From: Escherichia phage W115 | Length of the DNA: 64,000 nucleotides | Sequence record: ON286974 | Strand: one strand, 5' to 3' | Part shown: positions 3,889 through 30,044 of the stretch, piece by piece | Numbering within the stretch: position 1 is the first letter of the stretch | Layout: every line of letters begins with the position of its first letter | Made by a program: the position numbers and the translations under genes | The notes under the pieces: model-generated | Database searches by the model: none | What the model saw: the letters and a program-made list of their open reading frames with translations, nothing else | What the model was told of the DNA's origin: nothing

Positions 3889-5103
3889 TTAAGCAGGATG
3901 CGTTTCACGAATGCGTAGAACTCGCTCTAACGTCTCTCTGTCCAGCTTATGTAACTCTTTGGACTGATACATGAAACCATTGCGAGATTCCATGCAAGTG
4001 CAATCACTATATTTTTCTTCCGCTGCCGCGATTGTCTCCAGATCTTTGGCGTACTTGCTGGTTGAATAAACTTCTCGGTTACGCCACTCTAACCCAGCCT
4101 CATTGAATTTAACAATCTCGTCAAATACCCACCATCCAATGTAGATAAATGAAGTTTTGCGCCACGGGATCGGGTGTACGTAACGAAACATTTTAACAAC
4201 TTCCATTGAACATTTTCTACTTGTACTTGTTGCAACTTCTACTGTTTCATCTTCGATCTGTTGATATAGTTTAGCAACACACCAGAATTTGGCTGTGTCA
4301 TCGTAAGTAGCACTCTCTTTGAACAGATGACCGTCTGGAGTGATAGAAAATCCTTCCAGTGCTTCGCCAACCTCACTACCGATCAGAGTCGGTGACATTT
4401 GCCCTTCGCGCTGCAAATACCAGTTATATTTGATCGTCAAATTAGGCATACCGCTAGAATCGCCTACAATGTTCTCTGACACAACATAATTAAGTAAGAT
4501 CTCATTACCTAGTGCCACGGTCTTTGATTCCACTACATCCTGATCTACGTTCATTGTTGCCAGCATGATTTTAGTCGATGCGCTATCGGCTGAATCTTCC
4601 GACTCACCCCACACTTTTACAGTATACACGCCGTTTTTATCTGCTGTAAATTTTTGGATCGTAATATCCTGTGTTGTGTCTATAACGTCTTCGCCCTTAC
4701 TCCAACTATAATGTAGTTCATAGTTGTCTGCTGGAGTCTTCCCACCAGAAAATTTTACTGTTGCATGTAATTCTACGTCTGTTTGTGATGATACGTAGAA
4801 ATGCTGCGGTTCGGTGATATTTACGATTAATTCAGCTTCTTCCATGAGGAAAACTTCAGATTCTACTGATTCCATCGTATCGGTATCCTGTACCGTTACT
4901 TTATAGCTACCCGCATTTTCACTTGTTGCACCTACTACAGATAGCGTAGCTGTGCTATTTTCATGTGGTTGGTCGTCTTTTGTCCATGTATATGTCAAAT
5001 TGCTGGGTAATGGTTCGTCACCCGCTACAGTCGCCGTTAAGGTGAAACCATCTCCAGCAAGAAAACATCTTTTGTCAGATTTAATTGATACTGTGAAAGT
5101 CAT
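3889..5103 (-). CDS. hoc: Hoc, highly immunogenic outer capsid protein (Ig-like repeats)
   Basis: 404 aa with repeated Ig-like modules (TYTWTKDDQ..., YELHYSWSKGED..., GSYKVTVQD / GVYTVKVWG) and a C-terminal capsid-binding region; position between gene 24 and uvsW as in T4. Confidence 0.8.
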   Translation of the reverse strand: MTFTVSIKSDKRCFLAGDGFTLTATVAGDEPLPSNLTYTWTKDDQPHENSTATLSVVGATSENAGSYKVTVQDTDTMESVESEVFLMEEAELIVNITEPQHFYVSSQTDVELHATVKFSGGKTPADNYELHYSWSKGEDVIDTTQDITIQKFTADKNGVYTVKVWGESEDSADSASTKIMLATMNVDQDVVESKTVALGNEILLNYVVSENIVGDSSGMPNLTIKYNWYLQREGQMSPTLIGSEVGEALEGFSITPDGHLFKESATYDDTAKFWCVAKLYQQIEDETVEVATSTSRKCSMEVVKMFRYVHPIPWRKTSFIYIGWWVFDEIVKFNEAGLEWRNREVYSTSKYAKDLETIAAAEEKYSDCTCMESRNGFMYQSKELHKLDRETLERVLRIRETHPA

Positions 5104-8645: not shown

Positions 8646-8674
8646 ATCATATCACACACAAAATCACTTTGCAA
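8646..8674 (-). promoter_or_regulatory. sigma70-like promoter upstream of uvsY (TTGCAA-17-TATGAT)
   Basis: Read on the minus strand: TTGCAA, 17-nt spacer, TATGAT, about 30 nt upstream of the uvsY ATG. Confidence 0.4.
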
Positions 8675-9050
8675 GTCTTATGCGTAGTTGTTCAAGATCA
8701 TCTGGGTTATCTATTACTGAAAAGTAGATTGATACTATGATTGAGTTATCGTCGTACTGCGGAGTTACTTCTACTGTCAGGTTTCGGACCCGTGGTTCAT
8801 AGTTTCGGATCGCCTCATTGATGTTTTTTGATAAGGTATCCACCGTCAGTGGGTTCATGTTCTCAAACAGTGATTTATTGAGATCGCATCCAAACAGTGG
8901 ATCAAATGGACGAGATCCCTTGCGAGTAGTCACGATCAGTAGAATAGAATCTTTAACCGCTTTAATCCCTATGTTCTTTTTAACGTCGTTATTCCACGAT
9001 CTGGATATATTGAGATCCAAATCAGTATACATCTGATTAATAGTTGCCAT
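8664..9050 (-). CDS. 25: baseplate wedge protein gp25
   Basis: Start moved to ATG (MATINQMYTD...) with GAGGT RBS; ...TTRKGSRPFDP.FGCDL...RNYEPR...FSVIDNPDD... matches gp25. Confidence 0.9.
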   Translation of the reverse strand: MATINQMYTDLDLNISRSWNNDVKKNIGIKAVKDSILLIVTTRKGSRPFDPLFGCDLNKSLFENMNPLTVDTLSKNINEAIRNYEPRVRNLTVEVTPQYDDNSIIVSIYFSVIDNPDDLEQLRIRLAK

Positions 9051-9058
9051 GTTATACC

Positions 9059-9688
9059 TCAAAGAATTTTAAGGAAACTGGATAGACCTGATAATGAATA
9101 TACACCAGATTCCCCGCATTCGCACTTGATCGGTACTGCCAGCGTGATTTGATTTCTTGTTAGCTCGTCGATCACTTCTTCCACTTTATCCGTGGTAAGC
9201 ATATCCAGCACGCGGTCAAAGTCCTGTGCGTTCAGGTCGTCTATATTGAATTGCTGATCGCCGATCACGATATATTCGATACATGCAATTACCATCTGCA
9301 TAATATCAACATCTTCTGTAAACTTAGGTTGACGAAATTTGATTTTTACTTGCCCTAAGTCCAGAATATACGGTTCAACTTCTGGTATCTGTGTGCGTGA
9401 AACATCAAGAGAGTATACTTTCTCTTTATTGCATACACCACACACCCAAGTAGCATCAATTTTCATCTTATTGAGGCTGTGACACCATAAGAGAAGAAAA
9501 ATATATTCTGCTTCGCATTTCTCTAGCTCTAATGCATTGATCCCCGTACATTCATGTATGATCTCTATAACAACCTCTGACAGCTTGCCAGTCTCTTTTG
9601 CTGCTACCAGTTTTTGAAATTCGCCGAAGGTGAAAGCACGGGCGTGTATCAACTTTTCGCCTAATTGGATCTTGAAAAAGTATTGCAT
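9059..9688 (-). CDS. 26: baseplate hub subunit gp26
   Basis: 209 aa; size and position between 25 and 51 as in T4. Confidence 0.75.
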   Translation of the reverse strand: MQYFFKIQLGEKLIHARAFTFGEFQKLVAAKETGKLSEVVIEIIHECTGINALELEKCEAEYIFLLLWCHSLNKMKIDATWVCGVCNKEKVYSLDVSRTQIPEVEPYILDLGQVKIKFRQPKFTEDVDIMQMVIACIEYIVIGDQQFNIDDLNAQDFDRVLDMLTTDKVEEVIDELTRNQITLAVPIKCECGESGVYSLSGLSSFLKIL

Positions 9689-17270: not shown

Positions 17271-19322
17271 TTACATTTTAAATTTATCTGGCATTGCGTC
17301 TACAGATACCAGATCAGCGATAAGCTGACGTAGAGTTGCCTTATCTGCTTTCTTACGTTCGGTTTTAGCTTCGCTAATGAAGCTGGAGAAAGACAGGTCA
17401 GAAGCAGGTTTAACAACACCTTCACGGATGAATGCATCACCGTCCGCGATCATCTCGCCAGATTCTTGTAATGCTGCCAGTTCATTTTTGTTCATAATAT
17501 GTGCCTCAATGTAATAAGTTTCTTGTGAATCCGTCGATGCCGTAGCACGAGTTACCGTATCAAAGGATAACACAACACCGCGAGGAAGTAAAATCTCGCA
17601 TTCTTTGTAAGCAAATGCTTTGTTACCTACTGGCAACACAGGGATGTTTTCCGCGCCAGCAATGGAGAAAGCAACATTAGCGCCACCTTCACCGCGAGAG
17701 CCAGCCATAGAATCAACACCAGCAACGGCACTAGCCACGTTTGCATTCCAGCCGCCAAAAATGTTAGGTTCAAGGGAAGTGCTCACATAGTTTTTAAAGT
17801 AAAACGCTTTTTGCTTACGTGCAGTTTCCCACATTTGCGACCGGAAGTCCATACCACGATACAGAATAGTACCCGGATCAAGTTTAACGCCATAGTTGGA
17901 GAAGGCATTATCCAGTGCATCGCACATCTTGACCAATTCTTCTGGATCTGCGATGCCTTCAAACTCTTCCAGCTTACGGTCGGTTAGGAAGTTGTTCATA
18001 TTGATGTATGCTGCATCGGCATATTCGCTCAACACAAAACCTTCCGCGCCCGGCAGATCAAGATCAATATCTGCCATCATTTCACCCATGTTGCTAGCAA
18101 TTGCTTCAAACATACCGGAAGCAACATTACGTAGGGCATCGGTTTTAATCTGGGTGATATGACTACGCAGCATTTCAGCTTTTACATCTGCTGGCATAGA
18201 CTGGTCTACTCGATCCATTGCCAGGGCGGTGATCTTGTTTTCGAATACTTCCTCGCTCATGATTTCTTTTAAGCGTTTGATTGATGCTGCGATAACTTCC
18301 GCAGACAACGGATCATATTGATCCTGAACTTTTACCAGTTCGCTTACTGCGTATTTTGCATCGGCTTCGCTTTCAAAAATAGTACGCATGAAACCATAGC
18401 GAGTGATAATATCACTTGTCCAGTCATTCAGAGAACGGGCGGTTGAACGTTCTAAGGCTTGACGGTCAATCAGAGTATTAAACTGTTTCTTAGGTTCTGC
18501 TTCGGTGATATCTTCTTCCGGTTTAAGATTAATTTTTTCTGGATGATTCACATAGTCGCTGTTATAGGTCGCTTGAGTTTTCAGCATTTCTTCTTTAGTC
18601 AAACGAGATTTAGCCGCTACGCGTTGTTCTGCTTCCGAGTTTCGTTCTTCTTCTGACACAAGACTAGCCGCATACGCCTCATCTTTAGTCAGAGATTCAC
18701 CAGTAGCCTTAGATACCCAGCGATCACCTAAATCACTTTCTACTTTAGTGAACAAGGATTCATCAAGTTTAATCCCTTTAATCTTATCAATCGCCATCCC
18801 GCGACGCTTGACAACAACTAAAGCGATCTTTTTGCTGGTCATTACTTCCTGCTGGAATACTTCAAACTTCGGTGTACGACGCACCAAACGCTCTATAACG
18901 CGCTTAACCAGTTCGGTCTTACCTTTCATGCGGGATACGTTAAAACGGAACATAACAGCGTCTAATTGCGCTTTACGGGCTGTTTCCATAACCACATCAA
19001 AAGCACTTGCCATAACTGCAATCGGGTTATCTCCTAGACCATTTTTAAGCTGTACAATACGACCGCTTTTGTTCATTTCGCACAGTACAACATGTGCGGT
19101 CTTGTCACCCATACGAATGATTTTAGGTGTTTTGTTGGTGAAGTTACAAAGACGGACAATCACATCTTTATCGCGTGTCTGTACTGCAAAAAGCTGTTTA
19201 GGATTCTGCTTAGGCTTTAAGCACTGTACCGGAGCAATACTACCAAAGTTTTCTTCCTCTTCCGTCAACAGCCATTTCTCGAAAGATTCAATCATTAGAT
19301 CGTCGATTTCTAAGTTAAACAT
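17271..19322 (-). CDS. alt: Alt ADP-ribosyltransferase (capsid-packaged, modifies host RNA polymerase in T4)
   Basis: 683 aa; ART motifs ILYRGMDFRS, YVSTSLEP, ECEILLPRG; size and position after gene 54 as in T4. Confidence 0.85.
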   Translation of the reverse strand: MFNLEIDDLMIESFEKWLLTEEEENFGSIAPVQCLKPKQNPKQLFAVQTRDKDVIVRLCNFTNKTPKIIRMGDKTAHVVLCEMNKSGRIVQLKNGLGDNPIAVMASAFDVVMETARKAQLDAVMFRFNVSRMKGKTELVKRVIERLVRRTPKFEVFQQEVMTSKKIALVVVKRRGMAIDKIKGIKLDESLFTKVESDLGDRWVSKATGESLTKDEAYAASLVSEEERNSEAEQRVAAKSRLTKEEMLKTQATYNSDYVNHPEKINLKPEEDITEAEPKKQFNTLIDRQALERSTARSLNDWTSDIITRYGFMRTIFESEADAKYAVSELVKVQDQYDPLSAEVIAASIKRLKEIMSEEVFENKITALAMDRVDQSMPADVKAEMLRSHITQIKTDALRNVASGMFEAIASNMGEMMADIDLDLPGAEGFVLSEYADAAYINMNNFLTDRKLEEFEGIADPEELVKMCDALDNAFSNYGVKLDPGTILYRGMDFRSQMWETARKQKAFYFKNYVSTSLEPNIFGGWNANVASAVAGVDSMAGSRGEGGANVAFSIAGAENIPVLPVGNKAFAYKECEILLPRGVVLSFDTVTRATASTDSQETYYIEAHIMNKNELAALQESGEMIADGDAFIREGVVKPASDLSFSSFISEAKTERKKADKATLRQLIADLVSVDAMPDKFKM

Positions 19323-19922: not shown

Positions 19923-20441
19923 TTAGTTATTTTTTAATTGCTCATCTTGCAATAGGGCAATCACATGCTGGCGATGTTCTTCCGATTGAGGCACACCGAA
20001 AAAGTTTGTTTTGTAGAAATACTCTAATCGGTCTTCTCGTGTGCTCTCTTCCATCATGATCGCGGGTAGTCCGAGATTTCGGAAACGTCGCTTTTCTGCT
20101 GGCGTAAAATCACTGTAATACAACATAGAATCATCATTACCAGCAATGCTAAACTCATCCTTCATAAAGGAGAATATTGCGTTTAAACGCTGTTTACCGT
20201 CCACGATTTCGATCTCATAGCGAGAGCCATCATCAATCTTAGCCATTGCGATAGCACCAACCGGAAAATCATTAATCAGGTTTTCGATAAACATACGTTT
20301 GTTTTCGGTGTCCCATACCAAAGGACGCTGATAATCTGGGTTCATGTTGATATAGCCATCTTCTAACCATGCATCATAAACAGAGATGACAAAGTTTTTA
20401 GTATTGGTATAGTAACGGCGTTTAGGCGTTAAACGGTTCAT
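19923..20441 (-). CDS. DUF262 / ParB-like domain protein (GmrSD N-terminal-like)
   Basis: Track ORF trimmed to ATG with AGGAGA RBS; NPDYQRPLVWD...FPVGAIAM...EIVDGKQRLNAIFSF matches the DUF262 signature (DGQQR-type). Confidence 0.65.
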   Translation of the reverse strand: MNRLTPKRRYYTNTKNFVISVYDAWLEDGYINMNPDYQRPLVWDTENKRMFIENLINDFPVGAIAMAKIDDGSRYEIEIVDGKQRLNAIFSFMKDEFSIAGNDDSMLYYSDFTPAEKRRFRNLGLPAIMMEESTREDRLEYFYKTNFFGVPQSEEHRQHVIALLQDEQLKNN

Positions 20442-22061: not shown

Positions 22062-22229
22062 TTATTTGTTAATTTCTGGTGCGTTGCTCGGATAGTAACC
22101 TTCTTTAACACCCAGATATTTTGCAACCATCCCTACAATCTTCTGTGCTACTACAATGTCAAATTTCAGATAATCTTCGCCGTGGGTTTCAATGATATAT
22201 GCTTCACATGCTGCTTTAGTCTCGAACAT
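22062..22229 (-). CDS. small hypothetical protein (55 aa), duplicate of 25849..26016
   Basis: Manual ORF MFETKAACEAYIIETHGEDYLKFDIVVAQKI...; same length and near-identical sequence to the 25849..26016 ORF, by eye. Confidence 0.45.
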   Translation of the reverse strand: MFETKAACEAYIIETHGEDYLKFDIVVAQKIVGMVAKYLGVKEGYYPSNAPEINK

Positions 22230-22259
22230 TTTGATTCTCCTATTTCGTTTCGGTATGTG

Positions 22260-22295
22260 TGTAGTATAGGGGATCTCCCGATCCCCGTCAACAAC
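22260..22295 (-). promoter_or_regulatory. PeSL early promoter cassette 4
   Basis: GTTGAC - palindrome GGGGATCGGGAGATCCCC - TATACT; conserved leader. Confidence 0.6.
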
Positions 22296-23335: not shown

Positions 23336-23438
23336 CTTCGCAATAAGTGTTGAATCCGTCAAATACAATCACTTCGTATTTGACTCCATCGGCGATAGCT
23401 TTTACTTTATACCATCCATGCTTGTATAAAATCTTCAT
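23259..23438 (-). CDS. small hypothetical protein (59 aa)
   Basis: Track ORF trimmed to ATG with GAGGGA RBS, directly after PeSL 7. Confidence 0.4.
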   Translation of the reverse strand: MKILYKHGWYKVKAIADGVKYEVIVFDGFNTYCEDVKLSSMGCAYDYCKQRIDNKANCF

Positions 23439-23464
23439 CTTTATTTCCCTCAATCTCGTTTCGA

Positions 23465-23505
23465 TGTGTGTATTATGCTATAGGCTAGACCAGGTTGTCA
23501 ACAAC
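23465..23505 (-). promoter_or_regulatory. PeSL-type early promoter 7
   Basis: TTGACA ... TAATAC, CGAAACGAG leader. Confidence 0.5.
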
Positions 23506-23519
23506 TTTTTTAAAATTTT

Positions 23520-23553
23520 ATGCAATAAAAAAGCCGACACTAAGGTCGGCTAA
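23520..23553 (-). terminator. intrinsic terminator (near-copy of the 23027 element)
   Basis: gccgacc-ttagt-gtcggc hairpin plus T-run. Confidence 0.55.
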
Positions 23554-23558
23554 TAAAA

Positions 23559-23867
23559 TCATTTAGACAAATAATCTTTCAGTGCAATCCGGTCGGCATG
23601 TTCCGGCGTTACGTCAATCGCAATCACTTTAACTCGTGCTTTCTTGCGACCTGGGTTTTCTCGTAACCAGTGCTCATGACCGTGAACATTTTTATACTGC
23701 GATGCTTCTTCGAAGGTACGGATCGGACCTGGGTAATCAGCGTAAAGGATCTCTAGATCTTCGGTGATGTAAAAATATACATCGTAATTGCTGTTCTCTA
23801 GTTTAAGCAGAGACTTTCGGAACATTGGGAGATTTTCGCGGGTAAATTCAAAGATATTATCTTTCAT
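23559..23867 (-). CDS. small protein family member A (HxHW ... V-I-A-I-D-V motif)
   Basis: 102 aa; ...VYFYITEDLEILYADY...HGHEHW...VKVIAIDV...; shares its C-terminal motif with five other ORFs in this region. Confidence 0.6.
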   Translation of the reverse strand: MKDNIFEFTRENLPMFRKSLLKLENSNYDVYFYITEDLEILYADYPGPIRTFEEASQYKNVHGHEHWLRENPGRKKARVKVIAIDVTPEHADRIALKDYLSK

Positions 23868-23885
23868 AGTATTATCCTCAATAGT

Positions 23886-23915
23886 TGGATGAAAAGGGGG
23901 GCTTAACGCCCCGTA
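23886..23915 (-). terminator. intrinsic terminator
   Basis: ggggggcttaacgcccc hairpin plus T-run on the minus strand. Confidence 0.5.
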
Positions 23916-23917
23916 TA

Positions 23918-24205
23918 TTAAAACAGTCCTTCCTGTACACCGTAGTAGAGTTCATCGCTGATAATTTCATTAATGCGACGGTGTGCATATTCCTGATTTG
24001 CGAAGTTATCAGCAAGTTCTACTTTAGTTTCTCCGTCATGAGTCCATTTAGTGATAACTTTACCATCTGCAAATTTGAAGTTGAACTCTTTAGCTACTGC
24101 ATCGCGTACCAGACGTGCGAACTTGTTATTACGGATTGCATTATCGGTTTCGTGTGCAGCGTGAGCGAATTTGTTAACTTTCAGAGTGATAGTAATGTAT
24201 GCCAT
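23918..24205 (-). CDS. hypothetical protein (95 aa), paralog of 27215..27526
   Basis: Shares ...RNNKFARLVRDAVAKEFNFK... with ...KNATLIREVRKALAKEFNTK... in the 27215 ORF. Confidence 0.55.
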   Translation of the reverse strand: MAYITITLKVNKFAHAAHETDNAIRNNKFARLVRDAVAKEFNFKFADGKVITKWTHDGETKVELADNFANQEYAHRRINEIISDELYYGVQEGLF

Positions 24206-24244
24206 AATTTGATTCTCCTAGTTAGAAAGTGTATCTCGTTTCGA

Positions 24245-24285
24245 TGGGTGTATTATGCTATACACCCTCTCGCGTGTCAACACTT
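24245..24285 (-). promoter_or_regulatory. PeSL early promoter cassette 8
   Basis: TTGACA ... inverted repeat GGGTGTAT/ATACACCC with -10 TAATAC in the loop; conserved leader. Confidence 0.55.
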
Positions 24286-24286
24286 T

Positions 24287-24565
24287 TTATAAAATAATTT
24301 TTTGATATTTTTCTATGATGTTTGTGTAATCCACATCAACCGCTATCACCGTTGCTTCGAATCCACCGTTTAGCCAATGGCTATGGTCATGATCGTGAAA
24401 GAAACCAAGACCAGTACGAAGACCTTCTTTATATTCGGCGCGTACATTTAGATCATCATCGATAAACAGATAAAACCATGAATTTTTACTAGGATTGATG
24501 ATACAACCTTTCAGATTAGGGAGAATATCACGACTAAGAATAAACTTATCACCTACTTTGAACAT
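24287..24565 (-). CDS. small protein family member B (HxHW motif)
   Basis: Trimmed to ATG with GAGGA RBS; ...WFYLFIDDDLNVRAEY...HDHSHW...TVIAVDV... Confidence 0.6.
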   Translation of the reverse strand: MFKVGDKFILSRDILPNLKGCIINPSKNSWFYLFIDDDLNVRAEYKEGLRTGLGFFHDHDHSHWLNGGFEATVIAVDVDYTNIIEKYQKIIL

Positions 24566-24569
24566 AATA

Positions 24570-24890
24570 TTAGTCCTCATTTATAAGGTCAAACCAATTG
24601 TTTTTCGCATAATGCTTAATGCGTGCTTGATCTGCTTCCGCTGGTGATAGATTCCATGCAACCACTACAACTTCTGACGCATCGTCATCCGTTTCTGATA
24701 CCCAATGATTGTGATTCATACAGTTATTTGCGATCGAGTGAGCAAATGATTTCATCACTGGAGACGTATAATCATAGTAACGGATTTTCAGATTTTCATC
24801 AACGTACAAATAGATCGTATAAGGTTTATATTCAGTAACCAGTAACAGACAGTTACGCAATTCTGGGAAAATCTTTTTAGTTAATTTCAT
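24570..24890 (-). CDS. small protein family member C (HxHW motif, divergent C-terminus)
   Basis: Trimmed to ATG (MKLTKKIF...) with GAGGA RBS; ...IYLYVDENLKIRYYDY...NHNHW...VVVVAWN... Confidence 0.55.
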   Translation of the reverse strand: MKLTKKIFPELRNCLLLVTEYKPYTIYLYVDENLKIRYYDYTSPVMKSFAHSIANNCMNHNHWVSETDDDASEVVVVAWNLSPAEADQARIKHYAKNNWFDLINED

Positions 24891-24891
24891 T

Positions 24892-25110
24892 TTATAATCC
24901 TCGGTCGCGGCTATAGTACACGGTACGCCATACAATTTCATGTTTCGTGTCGCTCCAGCACACGATCTCATTTACTCTTAAATCTTTGTTATCAACAAAA
25001 GATGAACATTGTGACGCTTCTTTCATCATTTTATCTGCTGTTTTCTCATCAAATACAGCACAGATTTCTTTATACACTCGATAATCTTTGAATTGACTCT
25101 GAATACCCAT
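24892..25110 (-). CDS. small hypothetical protein, paralog of 25070..25333
   Basis: MGIQSQFKDYRVYKEI...KMMKEASQCSSF aligns with MSKFKEYKAYQQI...KMMEDASKCPSF; start uncertain. Confidence 0.4.
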   Translation of the reverse strand: MGIQSQFKDYRVYKEICAVFDEKTADKMMKEASQCSSFVDNKDLRVNEIVCWSDTKHEIVWRTVYYSRDRGL

Positions 25111-25333
25111 AATTAACACCATTCCAACCAATTGTTTTTGAGAAAACGTTTATCCACTGTTGAGTGTAACATGTTTCTTTCCATGATACAATACGAGTAG
25201 AATAATGGTTTTTGTTTCCAGAAAAGGACGGGCATTTTGATGCATCTTCCATCATCTTTTCGGCGAACTCTGGTGCGTATACTCGCAGGATCTGTTGATA
25301 TGCTTTGTATTCTTTAAATTTGCTCATAATCAT
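25070..25333 (-). CDS. small hypothetical protein, paralog of 24892..25110
   Basis: Track ORF; tandem duplicate of the downstream ORF. Confidence 0.45.
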   Translation of the reverse strand: MIMSKFKEYKAYQQILRVYAPEFAEKMMEDASKCPSFSGNKNHYSTRIVSWKETCYTQQWINVFSKTIGWNGVNYGYSESIQRLSSV

Positions 25334-25592
25334 TCACTACCTTATCAGCTTCTTTTGTTGTTTTTACATCAACTGCGATAACTCGTAAAGGTTCGTCATG
25401 GTTCCACCAGTGGTCATGAATATCAGCTTGTGATTTATCACCAAAGGAATCACGAATATCATTTTTACATTTATAGCTAATGTGACCTTCATAGTCAACA
25501 TAAAGGTAATTATCGAAAATCGGCGTTTTTAAGATCATACCGAAAAATCTTTCTTTGTGTGTCTTATCCAGCGTTGCAGTAATTCGCATCAT
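25314..25592 (-). CDS. small protein family member D (HxHW motif)
   Basis: 92 aa; ...NYLYVDYEGHISY...HDHWW...LRVIAVDV...; AAGAGGA RBS. Confidence 0.6.
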   Translation of the reverse strand: MMRITATLDKTHKERFFGMILKTPIFDNYLYVDYEGHISYKCKNDIRDSFGDKSQADIHDHWWNHDEPLRVIAVDVKTTKEADKVVNDYEQI

Positions 25593-25604
25593 AATATATT
25601 CCTC

Positions 25605-25784
25605 TTAGAAAGGGATGGTCATTTCTTGAGCTTGTACATTCTCGTTAGGATTAAACTTCATCCAGCCGATATTGTCTACCAGCATATGCACATTTTTATC
25701 ATATCCTACGTGAGTAGTCAACACTAAATGTGCTTTATCTTCAATGATGAGTTCCATGTACTTCTGAACTTCGATAGCTTTCAT
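25605..25784 (-). CDS. small hypothetical protein (59 aa)
   Basis: Manual ORF MKAIEVQKYMELIIEDK... directly after PeSL 9. Confidence 0.35.
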   Translation of the reverse strand: MKAIEVQKYMELIIEDKAHLVLTTHVGYDKNVHMLVDNIGWMKFNPNENVQAQEMTIPF

Positions 25785-25807
25785 TTTGATTCTCCGTTTG
25801 TTGTCTT

Positions 25808-25848
25808 GATGGGAGTATCTTACTACTCCCTTTAATCATTGTCAACTA
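25808..25848 (-). promoter_or_regulatory. PeSL early promoter cassette 9
   Basis: TTGACA ... inverted repeat GGGAGTA-GTAAGA-TACTCCC with -10-like TAAGAT in the loop; GGAGAATCAAA before ATG. Confidence 0.55.
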
Positions 25849-26016
25849 TTATTTGTTAATTTCTGGTGCGTTGCTCGGATAGTAACCTTCTTTAACACCA
25901 AGATATTTTGCAACCATTCCGGTGATCTTCTGTGCTACTACGATATCGAATTTCAGGTAGTCTTCACCGTGGTTTGCTACAATGTACGCTTCGCATTCTG
26001 CTTTAGTCTGGAACAT
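25849..26016 (-). CDS. small hypothetical protein (55 aa), duplicate of 22062..22229
   Basis: Track ORF trimmed: the N-terminal MLTGDHRSPI... is read-through of the PeSL; real start MFQTKAECEAYIVANHGEDYLKFDIVVAQKI... Confidence 0.5.
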   Translation of the reverse strand: MFQTKAECEAYIVANHGEDYLKFDIVVAQKITGMVAKYLGVKEGYYPSNAPEINK

Positions 26017-26047
26017 TTTTGATTCTCCTATATCTCGTTGGTATGTG

Positions 26048-26082
26048 TGCATTATAGGGGATCGGTGATCCCCTGTCAACAA
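26048..26082 (-). promoter_or_regulatory. PeSL early promoter cassette 10
   Basis: TTGACA - palindrome GGGGATCACCGATCCCC - TATAAT; conserved leader. Confidence 0.6.
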
Positions 26083-26084
26083 CT

Positions 26085-26378
26085 TTATAATGCTTTATAT
26101 GCGTATTTCATAAATTTGTCTGCCACTTCATTGGCATGTTCAGATTCTACGCCTGATTCGAGAACAATAGCTAGGTCGGTTTCGTCATTCCCGCCGTACC
26201 AATGATTTGATGTTCGATTTTTTTCAATTGGAAATTGGTCACTTTTATCTGTGCGACAAAATACATCTAAATGCTCGTCGATGTAAAAGATCCAATCTTC
26301 ATAAAGAATAACGGTATTAGCAAGATTTTTATTGCCTTCAACGAAAGGTTCGGCTACAAACAAATTAGTATGTTCCAT
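26085..26378 (-). CDS. small protein family member E (degenerate N-HW motif)
   Basis: Trimmed to ATG (MEHTNLFV...) with GAGGAAAA RBS; ...WIFYIDEHLDVF...SNHWYGG...LAIVLESGV... Confidence 0.55.
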   Translation of the reverse strand: MEHTNLFVAEPFVEGNKNLANTVILYEDWIFYIDEHLDVFCRTDKSDQFPIEKNRTSNHWYGGNDETDLAIVLESGVESEHANEVADKFMKYAYKAL

Positions 26379-26394
26379 AGTATTTTCCTCAAAA

Positions 26395-26586
26395 TTATAC
26401 AGCTTCGTAAACTTCCCAATGTCCAACACCAGCACGCTTAACGAAAAGGTTTTCTTTGATGTTATTCATAAACGTCTGGATGGATTTAATGCGGTTTGAA
26501 GGTTTCCATTCTTCGTTTGCATTGCGTCGATACATCATAACATTACCAGTTCGCTTATATTCAGCAACCATTTTAAGACCACACAT
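26395..26586 (-). CDS. hypothetical protein (63 aa)
   Basis: Track ORF; GAGGATAA RBS. Confidence 0.5.
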   Translation of the reverse strand: MCGLKMVAEYKRTGNVMMYRRNANEEWKPSNRIKSIQTFMNNIKENLFVKRAGVGHWEVYEAV

Positions 26587-26643
26587 AATATTATCCTCAA
26601 TTTGTGGGAGAGTATTACCCCTCCCAATGATTGTTATGTTATA

Positions 26644-26946
26644 TCACACAAAATGGCGTGTCAATGCTTCTTTTGCGGTTCCGCTAAGATTCTCGATCTC
26701 TCCTGGCATAACATCAACCGCAAGAACTTCTACAACATCCTCTGATCCTAACCAGTGAGTATGACCTTTGTAGAACTTGATATCCCATTTATCGCTATCG
26801 CTAGCCCACCACACATCACCGTCGATAAAGTTGATGTAAAGCACACTACGCCACATTGAATTAATTACTTTCAATACTGCGCCTTTCATCTCTTCCACGG
26901 TGTGGTCTTCCATTTTGAAGACCTCGCCTACCTTAACTTTTGCCAT
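26644..26946 (-). CDS. small protein family member F (HxHW motif)
   Basis: 100 aa; ...VLYINFIDGDVWW...HTHW...VEVLAVDV...; AGAGAGGTGA RBS. Confidence 0.6.
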   Translation of the reverse strand: MAKVKVGEVFKMEDHTVEEMKGAVLKVINSMWRSVLYINFIDGDVWWASDSDKWDIKFYKGHTHWLGSEDVVEVLAVDVMPGEIENLSGTAKEALTRHFV

Positions 26947-26963
26947 TTAGTCACCTCTCTTTA

Positions 26964-27143
26964 TTACATAACAATCACGCCAGCCGTTGAAAGTTGATGT
27001 TTCAACTGAGCATTTTCTGCTACCGTCAAATCAATGATTTCTTGTGACGCTGCAATCATATAGCCATTGGTGATATTGTTTTGCATCAGTTCAATGGTTT
27101 CTTCGTTGTAGCGGATTTTAGCGATGATTTCGTTGAAGTTCAT
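26964..27143 (-). CDS. small hypothetical protein (59 aa)
   Basis: Track ORF trimmed to remove promoter read-through (MLTGDHRSPI...); real start MNFNEIIAK... Confidence 0.45.
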   Translation of the reverse strand: MNFNEIIAKIRYNEETIELMQNNITNGYMIAASQEIIDLTVAENAQLKHQLSTAGVIVM

Positions 27144-27174
27144 AATTGATTCTCCTAGTTCGTTTCGGTATGTG

Positions 27175-27210
27175 TGTAGTATAGGGGATCGGTGATCCCC
27201 TGTCAACAAC
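27175..27210 (-). promoter_or_regulatory. PeSL early promoter cassette 11
   Basis: TTGACA - palindrome GGGGATCACCGATCCCC - TATACT; leader nearly identical to cassette 4. Confidence 0.6.
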
Positions 27211-27214
27211 TTTT

Positions 27215-27526
27215 TTAAAGTTTTTCCATGATAACGGTCATAATTATATCTTCTGCGCGAGCGGTCAGATTATCAGCGTCAGCATGTGGGCGGTTGGTTG
27301 TTACAGAGATAACACCGTTGCGCACTGGTTTGATGTTGATATCAAGATGATCCGCGAAACGTTCGCCAGTTACAGAATGAATTTTGGTGTTAAATTCTTT
27401 TGCCAGTGCCTTGCGAACTTCACGAATCAGGGTAGCGTTTTTCAGTTGGTTCTCCGCGCTCATGGTCTTCTGGGTGTTCATGGTTCCGTCGAAGTCAATC
27501 ATTGGCAGCGTTACGATGTATTTCAT
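27215..27526 (-). CDS. hypothetical protein (103 aa), paralog of 23918..24205
   Basis: Trimmed to ATG (MKYIVTLPM...); shared ...VRKALAKEFN... motif. Confidence 0.5.
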   Translation of the reverse strand: MKYIVTLPMIDFDGTMNTQKTMSAENQLKNATLIREVRKALAKEFNTKIHSVTGERFADHLDINIKPVRNGVISVTTNRPHADADNLTARAEDIIMTVIMEKL

Positions 27527-27569
27527 TTTTGATTCTCCGTTTAAGAAAGTGTGTTTCGTTTTGATGTGT

Positions 27570-27612: not shown

Positions 27613-28089
27613 TTATTTTTCTTGATGCTCGCGATCGTACTTTTCGAAATAAAATTCTACTGGCTGGTCGTGGATTGACAGCAAGCCAAAGCGTTTAGCC
27701 GCTCGCAATCCCATATTGCGCTGAATGTACTTCTGGAAGTTCTCGCGTATACACTTACGCCAGGATTCTAAGCCCATGCAGCTTTTATAAAGATTGCATT
27801 GCACACATGCCGGATTCATGTTATCAAGTATATCATGCTCCGGTTTATGCATTCCTACAACCTTATACTTCCACGATCCATCATCATTACGGGCAATTCG
27901 TCCATTTTCATCATAGACAACCTTTGAGCGTCGTAATACTGGTTTGATATGGTCTGCGTGCCAGCGATCCCCTAGTTCCTCGCCACAATAGGCACAACGT
28001 CCACCGTATTTCATTTTCAGGATCTGACGTTGCTCTTTCTTTGACAATTTTTTAGGTTTAGGGGCTTTCGCCCCTTCATTATCACACAT
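27613..28089 (-). CDS. HNH endonuclease
   Basis: 158 aa; CAYCG ... HADHIKP ... N ... CVQCN (HNH zinc-finger nuclease motif); start overlaps the ligase stop. Confidence 0.7.
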   Translation of the reverse strand: MCDNEGAKAPKPKKLSKKEQRQILKMKYGGRCAYCGEELGDRWHADHIKPVLRRSKVVYDENGRIARNDDGSWKYKVVGMHKPEHDILDNMNPACVQCNLYKSCMGLESWRKCIRENFQKYIQRNMGLRAAKRFGLLSIHDQPVEFYFEKYDREHQEK

Positions 28090-29578
28090 CGAATACCTCT
28101 TTTACTGTATTTGCAGCGGTCTTGTCGTAGCGAATACGTTTGATGATTGGGAGAAATAAAGAGAACTCCGGTTCATCTTCTTTACGTGATTTGCTGCGGA
28201 TATACCCGTTGCATGTCATCTCAATAACTTTTCCAATCAGGTTATGACGGTCAGCCCATAACATTTCTCGGTCGAGTTCATTTCGACGATCGAACGGAAT
28301 TACACGTTCAGTACCATCATCACCTTTTTCGGTTGTAGTGTCGGTTAATCCCGATCCGGTGTTAGTCATCATTCGTCCGCACGCACTACGGACAGTAAAA
28401 CCGCCTACCTTATTGGGGTCTTTACTATGCGGATATACATCAACAATTTCCGCGTCGAAGTCAATCACTTCTTTAAATTTAACCTGATCTTTACTACGGC
28501 GATCTTCAAATACACCATGTAAATTTTTAAGGATAATACCTTCTAATCCCATGTTTACATAGCGATGATATACTTCGCGAGCTTCGTCGATGTTGTTAAC
28601 TACAGTATTTTCGATTATCTGAACACGAGGATCGTTAAGTTCTTCAACAATCTGTTTTAGTTCTTCGAATCGATCTTTATATTGCTTCGTTGCTTTCTCG
28701 TTTCCGTAATACACATCACGGTCGATAACATCCCAGACAGTGTAAACAATACATTGGGCTTCTTCTTTTGGAATAGTTCCTTTAAGTGATTTGTTGAGTA
28801 TACCATTTCCGGTCTGACGATCTGCAACAACGGATTCTTTCACTGCTTCCGCTACTGGCGTTAATGGCATTTCCTCTTCTTCAAATATCCATGACAGAGT
28901 ACCATCATAAACGCTTTCAACGAAGTTCTGCGCTGGTGTTTGCGAAAGGGTAGGCATATATACCAATTCGCCATCTAGAACAATTCCACGGCCTCGTAGA
29001 CGCTCTAAAACCGCAAACAAATCATCAAGCCCTTGATAGGTATTACCTGAGCGGGTATAGATTGCTAATGTTTCCCCGTCAATATCAGCCATACCACGAG
29101 CGCCATCGCTTTTAAGTTGTGCATACGCCGGATACTTGATATTAGCAATAGTCTTATCAGAACATGACGATGCAAGGTGGCACGGTTGCTGAGGGATCAG
29201 TTTCTTCCATACCTTGTTTGCGGTGGTAGCGGAACAACCGCATTCCAGATCACGATTCAGGACCATCATTGCAACTTTAGCATCATCCTCTGACAAGCAA
29301 GTCAGAGTATCGGTAACTAGCTGTAATGCTGCATTACCAGTTACTTGACGCGTGGCAAGTTTATTTTTAAAGACCTGTAATGCACCGGATAAAGACAATA
29401 CAGACGAATAGCGAGACGGTTTATCGTATTTCTTTACGCCAAACGTAACCTGTTTGCAATATGCCAGATAAAAGCATTCTTTCAGCGTTTCATTGCTCGC
29501 GGATTCTTTCAGAATCTTTTCTTTCAGCGATGTTTTGTCTGTTGCTGCAAGCTGGTTAATGATATTAAGAATTGACAT
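28082..29578 (-). CDS. 30: ATP-dependent DNA ligase gp30
   Basis: About 498 aa; nucleotidyltransferase KxDG motif (LKSDGARG); size and position as T4 gene 30; start set to ATG with GAGGTG RBS (the track start is a GTG). Confidence 0.9.
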   Translation of the reverse strand: MSILNIINQLAATDKTSLKEKILKESASNETLKECFYLAYCKQVTFGVKKYDKPSRYSSVLSLSGALQVFKNKLATRQVTGNAALQLVTDTLTCLSEDDAKVAMMVLNRDLECGCSATTANKVWKKLIPQQPCHLASSCSDKTIANIKYPAYAQLKSDGARGMADIDGETLAIYTRSGNTYQGLDDLFAVLERLRGRGIVLDGELVYMPTLSQTPAQNFVESVYDGTLSWIFEEEEMPLTPVAEAVKESVVADRQTGNGILNKSLKGTIPKEEAQCIVYTVWDVIDRDVYYGNEKATKQYKDRFEELKQIVEELNDPRVQIIENTVVNNIDEAREVYHRYVNMGLEGIILKNLHGVFEDRRSKDQVKFKEVIDFDAEIVDVYPHSKDPNKVGGFTVRSACGRMMTNTGSGLTDTTTEKGDDGTERVIPFDRRNELDREMLWADRHNLIGKVIEMTCNGYIRSKSRKEDEPEFSLFLPIIKRIRYDKTAANTVKEVFDV

Positions 29579-30044
29579 TTTCACCTCGTTTTGTTAAACG
29601 TTCACGAATATCATTGAGGATACTACAAAATTCCGATTCAGTCAATATAGTCTTTAACGGATCAGTTCCACCTATGCTATGACGTAATTTCTTATTTCCG
29701 GTAGCAAGTAATGCTTTACAAAATTCTGGGTTATTCCGTGCCATCGTAACAAATGCCAGATGTACCAGTCTGTAATAATGCTCACTCATTCGATGAATCG
29801 GGCGACCCTGAAAATATAACATGTGATTCTCAATCTTTTCAGTTCTTCCGGTTCTTTTTGCTTTGCCACCGTGCATCAAAAAGATTTCTCTTTGTCTCTG
29901 AGGGTTCTTAAATCTTAGCCCCTGTAAAAATCCTTCTGTGCTGTTAATATCGCAGCCAAATAAACGGAATGGTCTTTTATTGAAATTACTCAATTCACCC
30001 GATGGATAAGGTCCACCCGCATAGATATCAATTTCAGAAGTCAT
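29565..30044 (-). CDS. NADAR (YbiA-like) domain protein
   Basis: 159 aa; IYAGGPYPSGELSNFNKRPF...STEGFLQGLRF...NPEFCKALLATGNKKL... matches the NADAR/DUF1768 pattern (F..G.LSNF ... sEh.fQA.KF ... LL.TG). Confidence 0.65.
   Translation of the reverse strand: MTSEIDIYAGGPYPSGELSNFNKRPFRLFGCDINSTEGFLQGLRFKNPQRQREIFLMHGGKAKRTGRTEKIENHMLYFQGRPIHRMSEHYYRLVHLAFVTMARNNPEFCKALLATGNKKLRHSIGGTDPLKTILTESEFCSILNDIRERLTKRGENVNS

Follow-up and report, generated by a model that had tools for sequence, protein, structure and literature searches.

A superfamily of small paralogous proteins with a conserved His-x-His-Trp element in the hyperplastic region of RB49-like phages

The hyperplastic regions of T4-like phage genomes are thought to house adaptive, host-specific genes, and almost all of their ORFans are uncharacterised. 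Among the closest described systems are the PeSL cassettes of Arbiol and Comeau (PMC2839356, PMC4122927), the canonical form of which is a PeSL followed by a single ORFan (PMC2839356). The present analysis concerns a cluster of six small genes, termed m1 to m6, within a stretch of 64,000 nucleotides from Escherichia phage W115 (sequence record ON286974), the whole of which is referred to as the window. Like the PeSL cassettes, the cluster combines early sigma-70 promoters with non-essential ORFans that are inserted, deleted or replaced between close relatives, and it includes or adjoins the ORF192, ORF210 and PeSL206/205 described in those papers. Presence or absence of its genes varies between boundaries formed by PeSLs or repeats, as seen in phages PTE-Eco09 and FL04. 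Unlike the ORFan of the canonical cassette, the family members are never located directly behind a PeSL. The word 'paralog' has no occurrences in either of the two papers.

The window is an RB49-like Krischvirus genome, of which positions 23400-27100 are 94-98% identical to ~58 Krischvirus genomes (RB49, phi1, JSE, kaaroe and others). The cluster is located on the minus strand in the hyperplastic region between alt (17271-19322) and DNA ligase gene 30 (28082-29584), and the six open reading frames (ORFs) have exactly the positions given in the original prediction, which was made from the letters of the window. The genes correspond to RB49p197, 199, 200, 203, 206 and 208, all annotated as 'hypothetical protein'. 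Thus m1 (23559..23867; 102 amino acids) is RB49 ORF197, m2 (24287..24565; 92 amino acids) is ORF199, m3 (24570..24890; 106 amino acids) is ORF200, m4 (25314..25592; 92 amino acids) is ORF203, m5 (26085..26378; 97 amino acids) is ORF206 and m6 (26644..26946; 100 amino acids) is ORF208. The ORF208 of RB49 itself is a 106-amino acid allele of m6 with a longer loop. Each of the six has a GAGG-type ribosome-binding site 6-9 nucleotides upstream of its ATG.

These six ORFs are true ancient paralogues of one lineage-specific family. Five PHROG families merge into a genuine ORFan superfamily with a common predicted fold and an invariant His-Trp pair, which had not previously been merged, in a region already known for the shuffling of ORFans. 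The arms-race and metal-binding readings that accompanied the original prediction are not established.

Homology, motif and predicted fold

Pairwise identities between the six proteins are ~20-32%, and pairwise BLASTP scores are 17-52 bits with several pairs below 20 bits; the closest paralogue of m3 is m1 (32% identity, 52 bits). Since the similarity is this low, tests that are independent of the choice of members were used. The background set comprised the 597 six-frame ORFs of the window of at least 40 amino acids, with 51,212 residues. A hidden Markov model (HMM) based upon any five members found the sixth as the best match outside the training set in every case, with E-values of 1.7e-13 for m1, 4e-8 for m2, 8.3e-12 for m3, 5e-9 for m4, 1.8e-4 for m5 and 6.5e-7 for m6. 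The best non-member in these searches had E-values of 0.03-0.8. The ORF at 8664-9062 recurred as the best non-member (E 0.03-0.4), and was rejected on its weak score alone.

A database search gave 90 relatives, all of which sort into six orthologue groups. Alignment of the six group profiles with hhalign gave E-values of 5.3e-13 to 1.3e-3 for 15 of the 15 pairs, all of them colinear; none approaches the value of 1 above which the original prediction had proposed that the family be given up. In PHROGs the six genes are split over five unrelated-looking families, m1 and m3 sharing one, in contrast to the single superfamily found here. The best matches are phrog_9345, phrog_17255, phrog_15972, phrog_15965 and phrog_16486, all of 'unknown function', aligned end to end with E-values of 4e-48 to 3e-63, and weak cross-matches to PHROGs connect the members.

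The pattern H.HW is found in five of the six members and in none of the other six-frame ORFs among the 597, where 0.54 occurrences are expected by chance. It is HEHW in m1 (residues 64-67), HSHW in m2, HNHW in m3, HDHW in m4 and HTHW in m6. The exception is m5, the most divergent of the six, which reads S-N-H-W in the window and H-N-H-W in the majority of its orthologues. The H-x-H-W attributed to all six members by the original prediction therefore holds for five, and x-H-W alone is universal. The proposed strand V-[IV]-A-[IV]-D-V is literally present in three members, as VIAIDV in m1 (residues 81-86) and VIAVDV in m2 and m4; the remaining segments are VLAVDV in m6, VVAWNL in m3 and VLESGV in m5. 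The third element, a core of (F/Y)-x-(I/V)-(D/E)-x-x-L, is literally matched only by m5. Both the core and the VIAVDV strand hold as profile features, the actual consensus of the core being Y-[LIF]-[YF]-[IV]-[DNT]-x-x-[LG].

Two residues, the second His and the Trp, are invariant in an alignment of 26 diverse members, and no others are; the first His is conserved in at least 90%. The same alignment has no further invariant column of Asp, Glu, Cys or His. Within the orthologue groups strand 2, HxHW and strand 5 vary least and are nearly fixed. Variability and insertions or deletions are most frequent in the N-terminus, in the loop before HxHW (46-63) and in the C-terminal helix.

The AlphaFold2 model of m1, calculated from an alignment of 34 sequences, has a predicted local distance difference test score (pLDDT) of 86.8 and a predicted TM-score (pTM) of 0.82. 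Starting at the N-terminus, the modelled chain forms strands at residues 5-7, 19-23, 29-34 and 40-45, continues as a loop with short helices, and then forms a strand at 78-84, corresponding to the VIAIDV segment, and a C-terminal helix at 88-100. HEHW falls within the least confident block. For m5, modelled from its own orthologues only, the pLDDT is 72 and the pTM 0.70, with the (S/H)xHW loop below a pLDDT of 50. The order of elements is the same in both models: strands 1-4, loop, strand 5 and C-terminal helix. The family is thus predicted to fold as a small five-stranded beta-sheet or barrel closed by the C-terminal helix, in which strands 4 and 5 would be joined by a low-confidence loop of variable length that ends in (H)-x-H-W. 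A Foldseek search of BFVD matched family paralogues only (from kvi, PHB13 and JSE; E 1e-9 to 7.6e-3, TM-score 0.54-0.79). The best PDB match of the m1 model with Foldseek has an E-value of 0.62, and a profile search of PDB sequences gave at best a thiol peroxidase at 1.4; the modelled fold is most aptly called a small beta-barrel-like sheet with an added helix, and no recognisable solved relative was found among the PDB matches.

A coincidence of motifs among unrelated short ORFs might be suspected from the low identities, from the BLAST scores below 20 bits, and from the literal patterns of the original prediction that fit only some members. Its probability is negligible, and the homology, fold and motif tests have already refuted it. 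Every member is recovered when left out of the HMM, the profile-profile alignments are significant and colinear throughout, independent alignments lead to a shared predicted topology with fold matches in BFVD, and H.HW is found nowhere else in the residues of the six-frame ORFs.

Distribution, selection and plasticity

An HMM was run exhaustively against 1.84 billion representative proteins, and gave 21 clusters at E <= 1e-3. One of these, the 532-amino acid repeat protein P0103 (E 1.8e-4), is probably not a family member and was set aside as a false positive. Short metagenomic contigs are the source of the newly found distant members, which have retained H-[ND]-H-W with a single exception, where the first His is missing. 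Homologues of ORF209 and ORF204 are encoded on these contigs, together with PeSL sequences, and even the best-conserved gene there has only ~75% nucleotide identity to the Krischvirus isolates. When two divergent members were compared by tblastn with 50,697 phage records, matches were found in 55-56 Krischvirus records only. Judged from these searches, the family is confined to the RB49-like phages (Krischvirus) and an uncultured sister lineage.

A neighbour-joining tree places the distant proteins inside the individual paralogue clades (m5; m2; m1 with m3; m4; m6), and the sister lineage has kept orthologues of individual paralogues. It follows that the duplications took place before these lineages separated. 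The division into six is thus old, not recent, and has been stably kept, which does not support the rapid diversification of the original prediction.

There is probably a seventh, very divergent relative. Some Krischvirus genomes have an 88-amino acid gene between ORF208 and ORF209, represented by JSE_00215 (4172-4438 of the extracted JSE locus L009) and G2494_00212 (4119-4385 of the G2494 locus L008), which is absent from the window (26946-26964). JSE_00215 keeps one His and has no Trp; it aligns colinearly with the family in hhalign (P 3e-4). The BFVD search also matched an 88-amino acid JSE protein, C4MZ33 (E 5e-3), presumed to be the same protein.

Selection was assessed from codon alignments of ten genomes, with the ratio of nonsynonymous to synonymous substitution rates (dN/dS) calculated pairwise and gene-wide across 8-10 genomes per group. 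The median dN/dS is 0.08-0.22 for the six members, with a pooled ratio of the corresponding polymorphisms (pN/pS) of 0.20-0.54. The dN/dS values are in the range of, or below, those of several non-family neighbours. This indicates purifying selection on every orthologue group. No gene-wide dN/dS exceeds 1, and the suggested arms-race selection is not supported. Alleles can nevertheless differ greatly. The minimum amino acid identity between alleles is 55% for m3, 55% for m4 and 63% for m5, compared with 98-100% in ORF198, ORF209 and ORF210, and these divergent alleles occur in genomes that are otherwise ~95% identical. The contrast with the neighbouring genes indicates replacement of alleles by recombination, and not fast divergence by point mutation.

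The family members are accessory, dispensable genes in a plastic region. Phage FL04, isolated on E. coli K-12 MG1655, lacks m1 to m4 through a deletion between the two 172-nucleotide repeats of ORF191 and ORF205. PTE-Eco09, the host of which is recorded only as E. coli, lacks ORF206 to ORF209, and with them m5 and m6, through a deletion from PeSL to PeSL. In JSE and KMB43 two divergent m3-like genes replace m2 and m3. Both m1 and m5 are frameshifted in JSE, and FL04 has an in-frame fusion of ORF207 to m5. These deletions, allele replacements and fusions fit recombination between PeSLs and other local repeats.

Two further fusions are found in metagenomes. P0093 (823-1434 of contig L002, metagenome SRR8048117) is a natural tandem of 203 amino acids with two domains of the family, each with HNHW. 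Its 2.1 kb contig has five family domains in four genes, flanked by PeSL-like sequences. An ORF of 260 amino acids (318-1100 of contig L004, metagenome SRR8048112) comprises two phrog_8471 domains (9-69 and 82-136) followed by an m3-like HxHW domain (162-259), which is the order of the separate genes ORF202, ORF201 and m3 in the window (24570-25333). The fusion might, in the manner of a Rosetta stone, point to a functional connection.

Predicted early transcription units and possible role

All transcription signals described here are on the minus strand. The original prediction placed most of the genes behind a PeSL of their own, but not one of the six comes first behind a PeSL or any sigma-70-like promoter. 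Behind the PeSLs at 27206, 26079, 24280 and 23501 come ORF209, ORF205, ORF198 and ORF196 respectively, and the family members occupy positions 2 to 7 of multi-gene early units. The PeSL at 27141..27224 (TTGACA-N17-TATACT, 27206->27178), with the stem-loop GGGGATCACCGATCCCC in its spacer, heads the unit comprising ORF209 and m6. Within the 3' end of m6, upstream of ORF207 and m5, is a promoter-like site (26636..26664; TTGACA-N17-TAACAT) that matches 10 of the 12 consensus positions and has a GGGAG..CTCCC stem-loop after it. Directly after the stop codon of m5, PeSL206/205 (26014..26097) has a perfect TTGACA-N17-TATAAT (26079->26051), and is followed by ORF205. After a further promoter-like site (25817..25845; TTGACA-N17-TAAGAT) the unit continues with ORF204, m4, ORF202, ORF201, m3 and m2. 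The junctions m4/ORF202, ORF201/m3 and m3/m2 are overlapping or separated by 1-4 nucleotides, which suggests coupled translation; the 3' end of m4 overlaps the start of ORF202 by 20 nucleotides.

The last unit begins right after the stop codon of m2 with the PeSL at 24233..24298 (TTGACA-N17-CATAAT, 24280->24252), and runs through ORF198 and m1 to an intrinsic terminator (23532..23551), AGCCGACCTTAGTGTCGGCT followed by a T-run. Between ORF198 and m1 is a short, weak GC stem-loop (23898..23912), GGGGCGTTAAGCCCC. This is possibly an attenuator; the equivalent site in phage G2494 is annotated as a putative terminator.

The PeSLs themselves are of two kinds. In the copies at 27141-27224 and 26014-26097 the GC stem-loop GGGGATCACCGATCCCC is itself the 17-nucleotide spacer between the -35 and -10 elements, so that hairpin and promoter occupy the same bases. 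At 24233-24298 and 23453-23518 the PeSL has another hairpin, and this one overlaps the -10 element.

The description of m1 to m6 as early genes is supported by the consensus sigma-70 PeSLs at the head of the units. One of these is experimentally strong: cloned by Arbiol et al. (PMC2839356) and fused to lacZ, PeSL206/205 was a very strong promoter, with ~13,000 Miller units. On this account there are good grounds to predict early transcription of at least the m4-m3-m2 unit.

Searches for function with the six proteins in Pfam, NCBIfam and PADLOC, and with 37 family members in Pfam, gave nothing above noise. Matches to PROCT, TTL, Imm19 and T4_Y03C (E 0.003-0.1) were inconsistent between members and were discarded. 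No resemblance to any protein of known function was found in searches of PADLOC, Pfam, NCBIfam, PDB or BFVD, and none to the characterised anti-defence inhibitors (Acr, Tad, Acb, Ocr, Arn and others). All six proteins are predicted to be soluble and single-domain; they are mildly acidic (isoelectric point 4.5-6.4), and two lack Cys. The mild acidity and the two Cys-free members argue against DNA mimicry, Cys-based catalysis and zinc fingers.

The short five-stranded sheet is reminiscent of KOW or SH3-like domains. The N-terminal K-V-G-D/E-x-F of m2 (KVGDKF) and m6 looks KOW-like, and P0085, an orthologue of m2, is labelled 'KOW2-KOW3 domains of Spt5' in the database. However, Pfam KOW gave no match even at E <= 1, and no significant structural match to an SH3-like barrel was found. 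The family further differs from KOW in that K-V-G-D is absent from m1, m3, m4 and m5, and in having an extra HxHW loop of 20-35 residues and a C-terminal helix.

The best explanation of these properties, the chances of which are judged to be evenly balanced, is that the proteins are early accessory binding modules for host takeover or counter-defence. Either role is plausible. Transcribed by the host sigma-70 RNA polymerase immediately after infection, m1 to m6 would be expressed as downstream cistrons of PeSL-headed polycistronic units, each with its own Shine-Dalgarno sequence. The proteins would act as stoichiometric binding modules during early host takeover or counter-defence, with the conserved barrel as a scaffold and the H-x-H-W loop as a common contact or ligand site. 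The choice of target by each paralogue would be made by the variable loop preceding the motif and by the N- and C-terminal surfaces. In their size, accessory status, variable region and probable early expression the proteins resemble Ocr and Arn, Tad1, Tad2 and Acb2, and the Acr proteins. The cytosine of RB49 DNA is unmodified (PMC4041780); there is therefore no shield of hydroxymethylcytosine (hmC) of the T4 kind, and protein countermeasures are plausible, if circumstantially so.

Several points weigh against this explanation. A gene-wide dN/dS well below 1 gives no positive sign of an arms race. The isoelectric points are far from those of the DNA mimics, and a mimic of the Ocr or Arn type was rejected on charge. 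In the literature on these ORFs, searched by locus tag, accession, HxHW motif and Krischvirus or RB49 anti-defence, no phenotype, partner or expression data were found. The structures are predictions, with their lowest confidence in the very loop that would be functionally critical. At 26664 and 25845 the sites are promoter-like by consensus match alone.

Three other explanations bear on the same properties. In one the proteins are metalloproteins, in which the H-x-H pair coordinates Zn, Ni or Fe, most plausibly at a homo- or heterodimer interface where two HxH would provide four His, to give a metalloenzyme or a metal-dependent binder. The invariance of the second His and the near-invariance of the first are as expected, as is the location of the motif in a flexible loop of low pLDDT and not in the core, as for a functional site; dimers would fit with the P0093 tandem and with m3 and m2 lying so close together. 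Yet each chain has just two conserved potential ligands, with no third or fourth column of Asp, Glu, Cys or His. Moreover the first His is Ser in the m5 of the window and its close relatives, Ser or Asn in some natural members and absent from P0091, and the probable seventh relative has one His with no Trp. No Pfam or NCBIfam match to HIT, cupin, HNH, MBL or 2H was found and no metalloprotein fold was matched, 2H/CNPase folds giving TM-scores of ~0.2 only. The family is unlike HIT and 2H in having a single H-x-H per chain, with a polar x (in contrast to HIT) and no second HxT/S. Metal binding is considered unlikely. By analogy with Tad and Acb2, oligomers might instead act as a sponge that sequesters a nucleotide-derived immune signal or other ligand, with HxHW stacking on it and hydrogen bonding to it and the paralogues tuned to different ligands. 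A size of ~100 amino acids, early expression and diversification in multiple copies would fit, and so would an invariant aromatic and His element within a flexible loop. This is nevertheless the least probable of the three, an argument by analogy only that presupposes oligomerisation, and for which neither sequence nor fold searches gave a significant match to known sponges.

The third explanation is that the genes are an evolutionary by-product, passengers of PeSL- or repeat-mediated shuffling of cassettes that are regenerated by duplication and recombination, with little or no value for fitness. The region does contain at least three other pairs of small paralogues (phrog_7474, phrog_8471 and phrog_8009), and PeSL mini-circles have been demonstrated to form in it (PMC2839356). 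FL04 does without four members and PTE-Eco09 without two, and JSE has its frameshifted m1 and m5. But the low dN/dS in every orthologue group, the invariance of the His-Trp pair across lineages of just 20-35% overall identity and the intact ribosome-binding site at each gene are not expected of passengers. Nor is the retention of orthologues of individual paralogues in the sister lineage, despite ~75% nucleotide identity in the best-conserved neighbouring gene. This explanation is considered quite improbable.

The preferred reading as early binding modules can be taken further. The family might constitute a new fold class of counter-defence proteins, each paralogue neutralising a different E. 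coli immune system, or sequestering a signal or metal cofactor, via the His-x-His-Trp loop. This is a doubtful extension, to be given little weight at present. If true, it would explain how RB49-type phages with unmodified cytosine cope without the hmC shield of T4, and the phrog_8471 fusions would mark a two-component inhibitor. Should the family turn out to act in anti-defence or host takeover, that repertoire would gain a new structural class. Without such a role, the superfamily still documents that gene families of a PeSL-rich region persist under purifying selection while being shuffled, and refines the cassette model of Arbiol et al. It is a compact target for experiment, with a confidently predicted fold that has no PDB relatives, a sharp invariant motif, six paralogues, and natural deletion, fusion and allele variants among sequenced isolates. 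Mutation of the His and the Trp is expected to abolish function.

Neighbouring genes

The same hyperplastic region includes three further pairs of small paralogues. ORF198 (23918-24205) and ORF210 (27215-27529) belong to phrog_7474. ORF201 (24892-25110) and ORF202 (25070-25333), both on the minus strand, belong to phrog_8471 with 40% identity, and are packed between m4 and m3. ORF191 (22062-22229) and ORF205 (25849-26016) belong to phrog_8009, and form the 172-nucleotide direct repeat with 87% identity. The immediate upstream neighbour of m5 is ORF207 (26395..26586, minus strand).

A segment of 160 nucleotides in ORF205 (~25877-26036) recurs with ~69% identity in two unrelated 47-kb phages, vB_EcoS_swi2 and TanjaMuster_Bas81. 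This similarity hints that the small gene may move between phage groups.

The ORF starts at 22166-22294, 25849-26082 and 26964-27209, of which the last two are N-terminal extensions, result from PeSL repeats being read in frame ('MLTGDHRSPI(L/M)HTY(R/Q)..GES'); they are artefacts and do not constitute a protein family. Outside the cluster RB49p187 (172 amino acids; 863-1381 of the extracted RB49 locus L001, ~19923-20441 of the window), upstream of the DNA methyltransferase gene, may, as judged by eye only, encode a DUF262/ParB-like domain of the GmrS N-terminal type ('DYQRP...DGKQRL').

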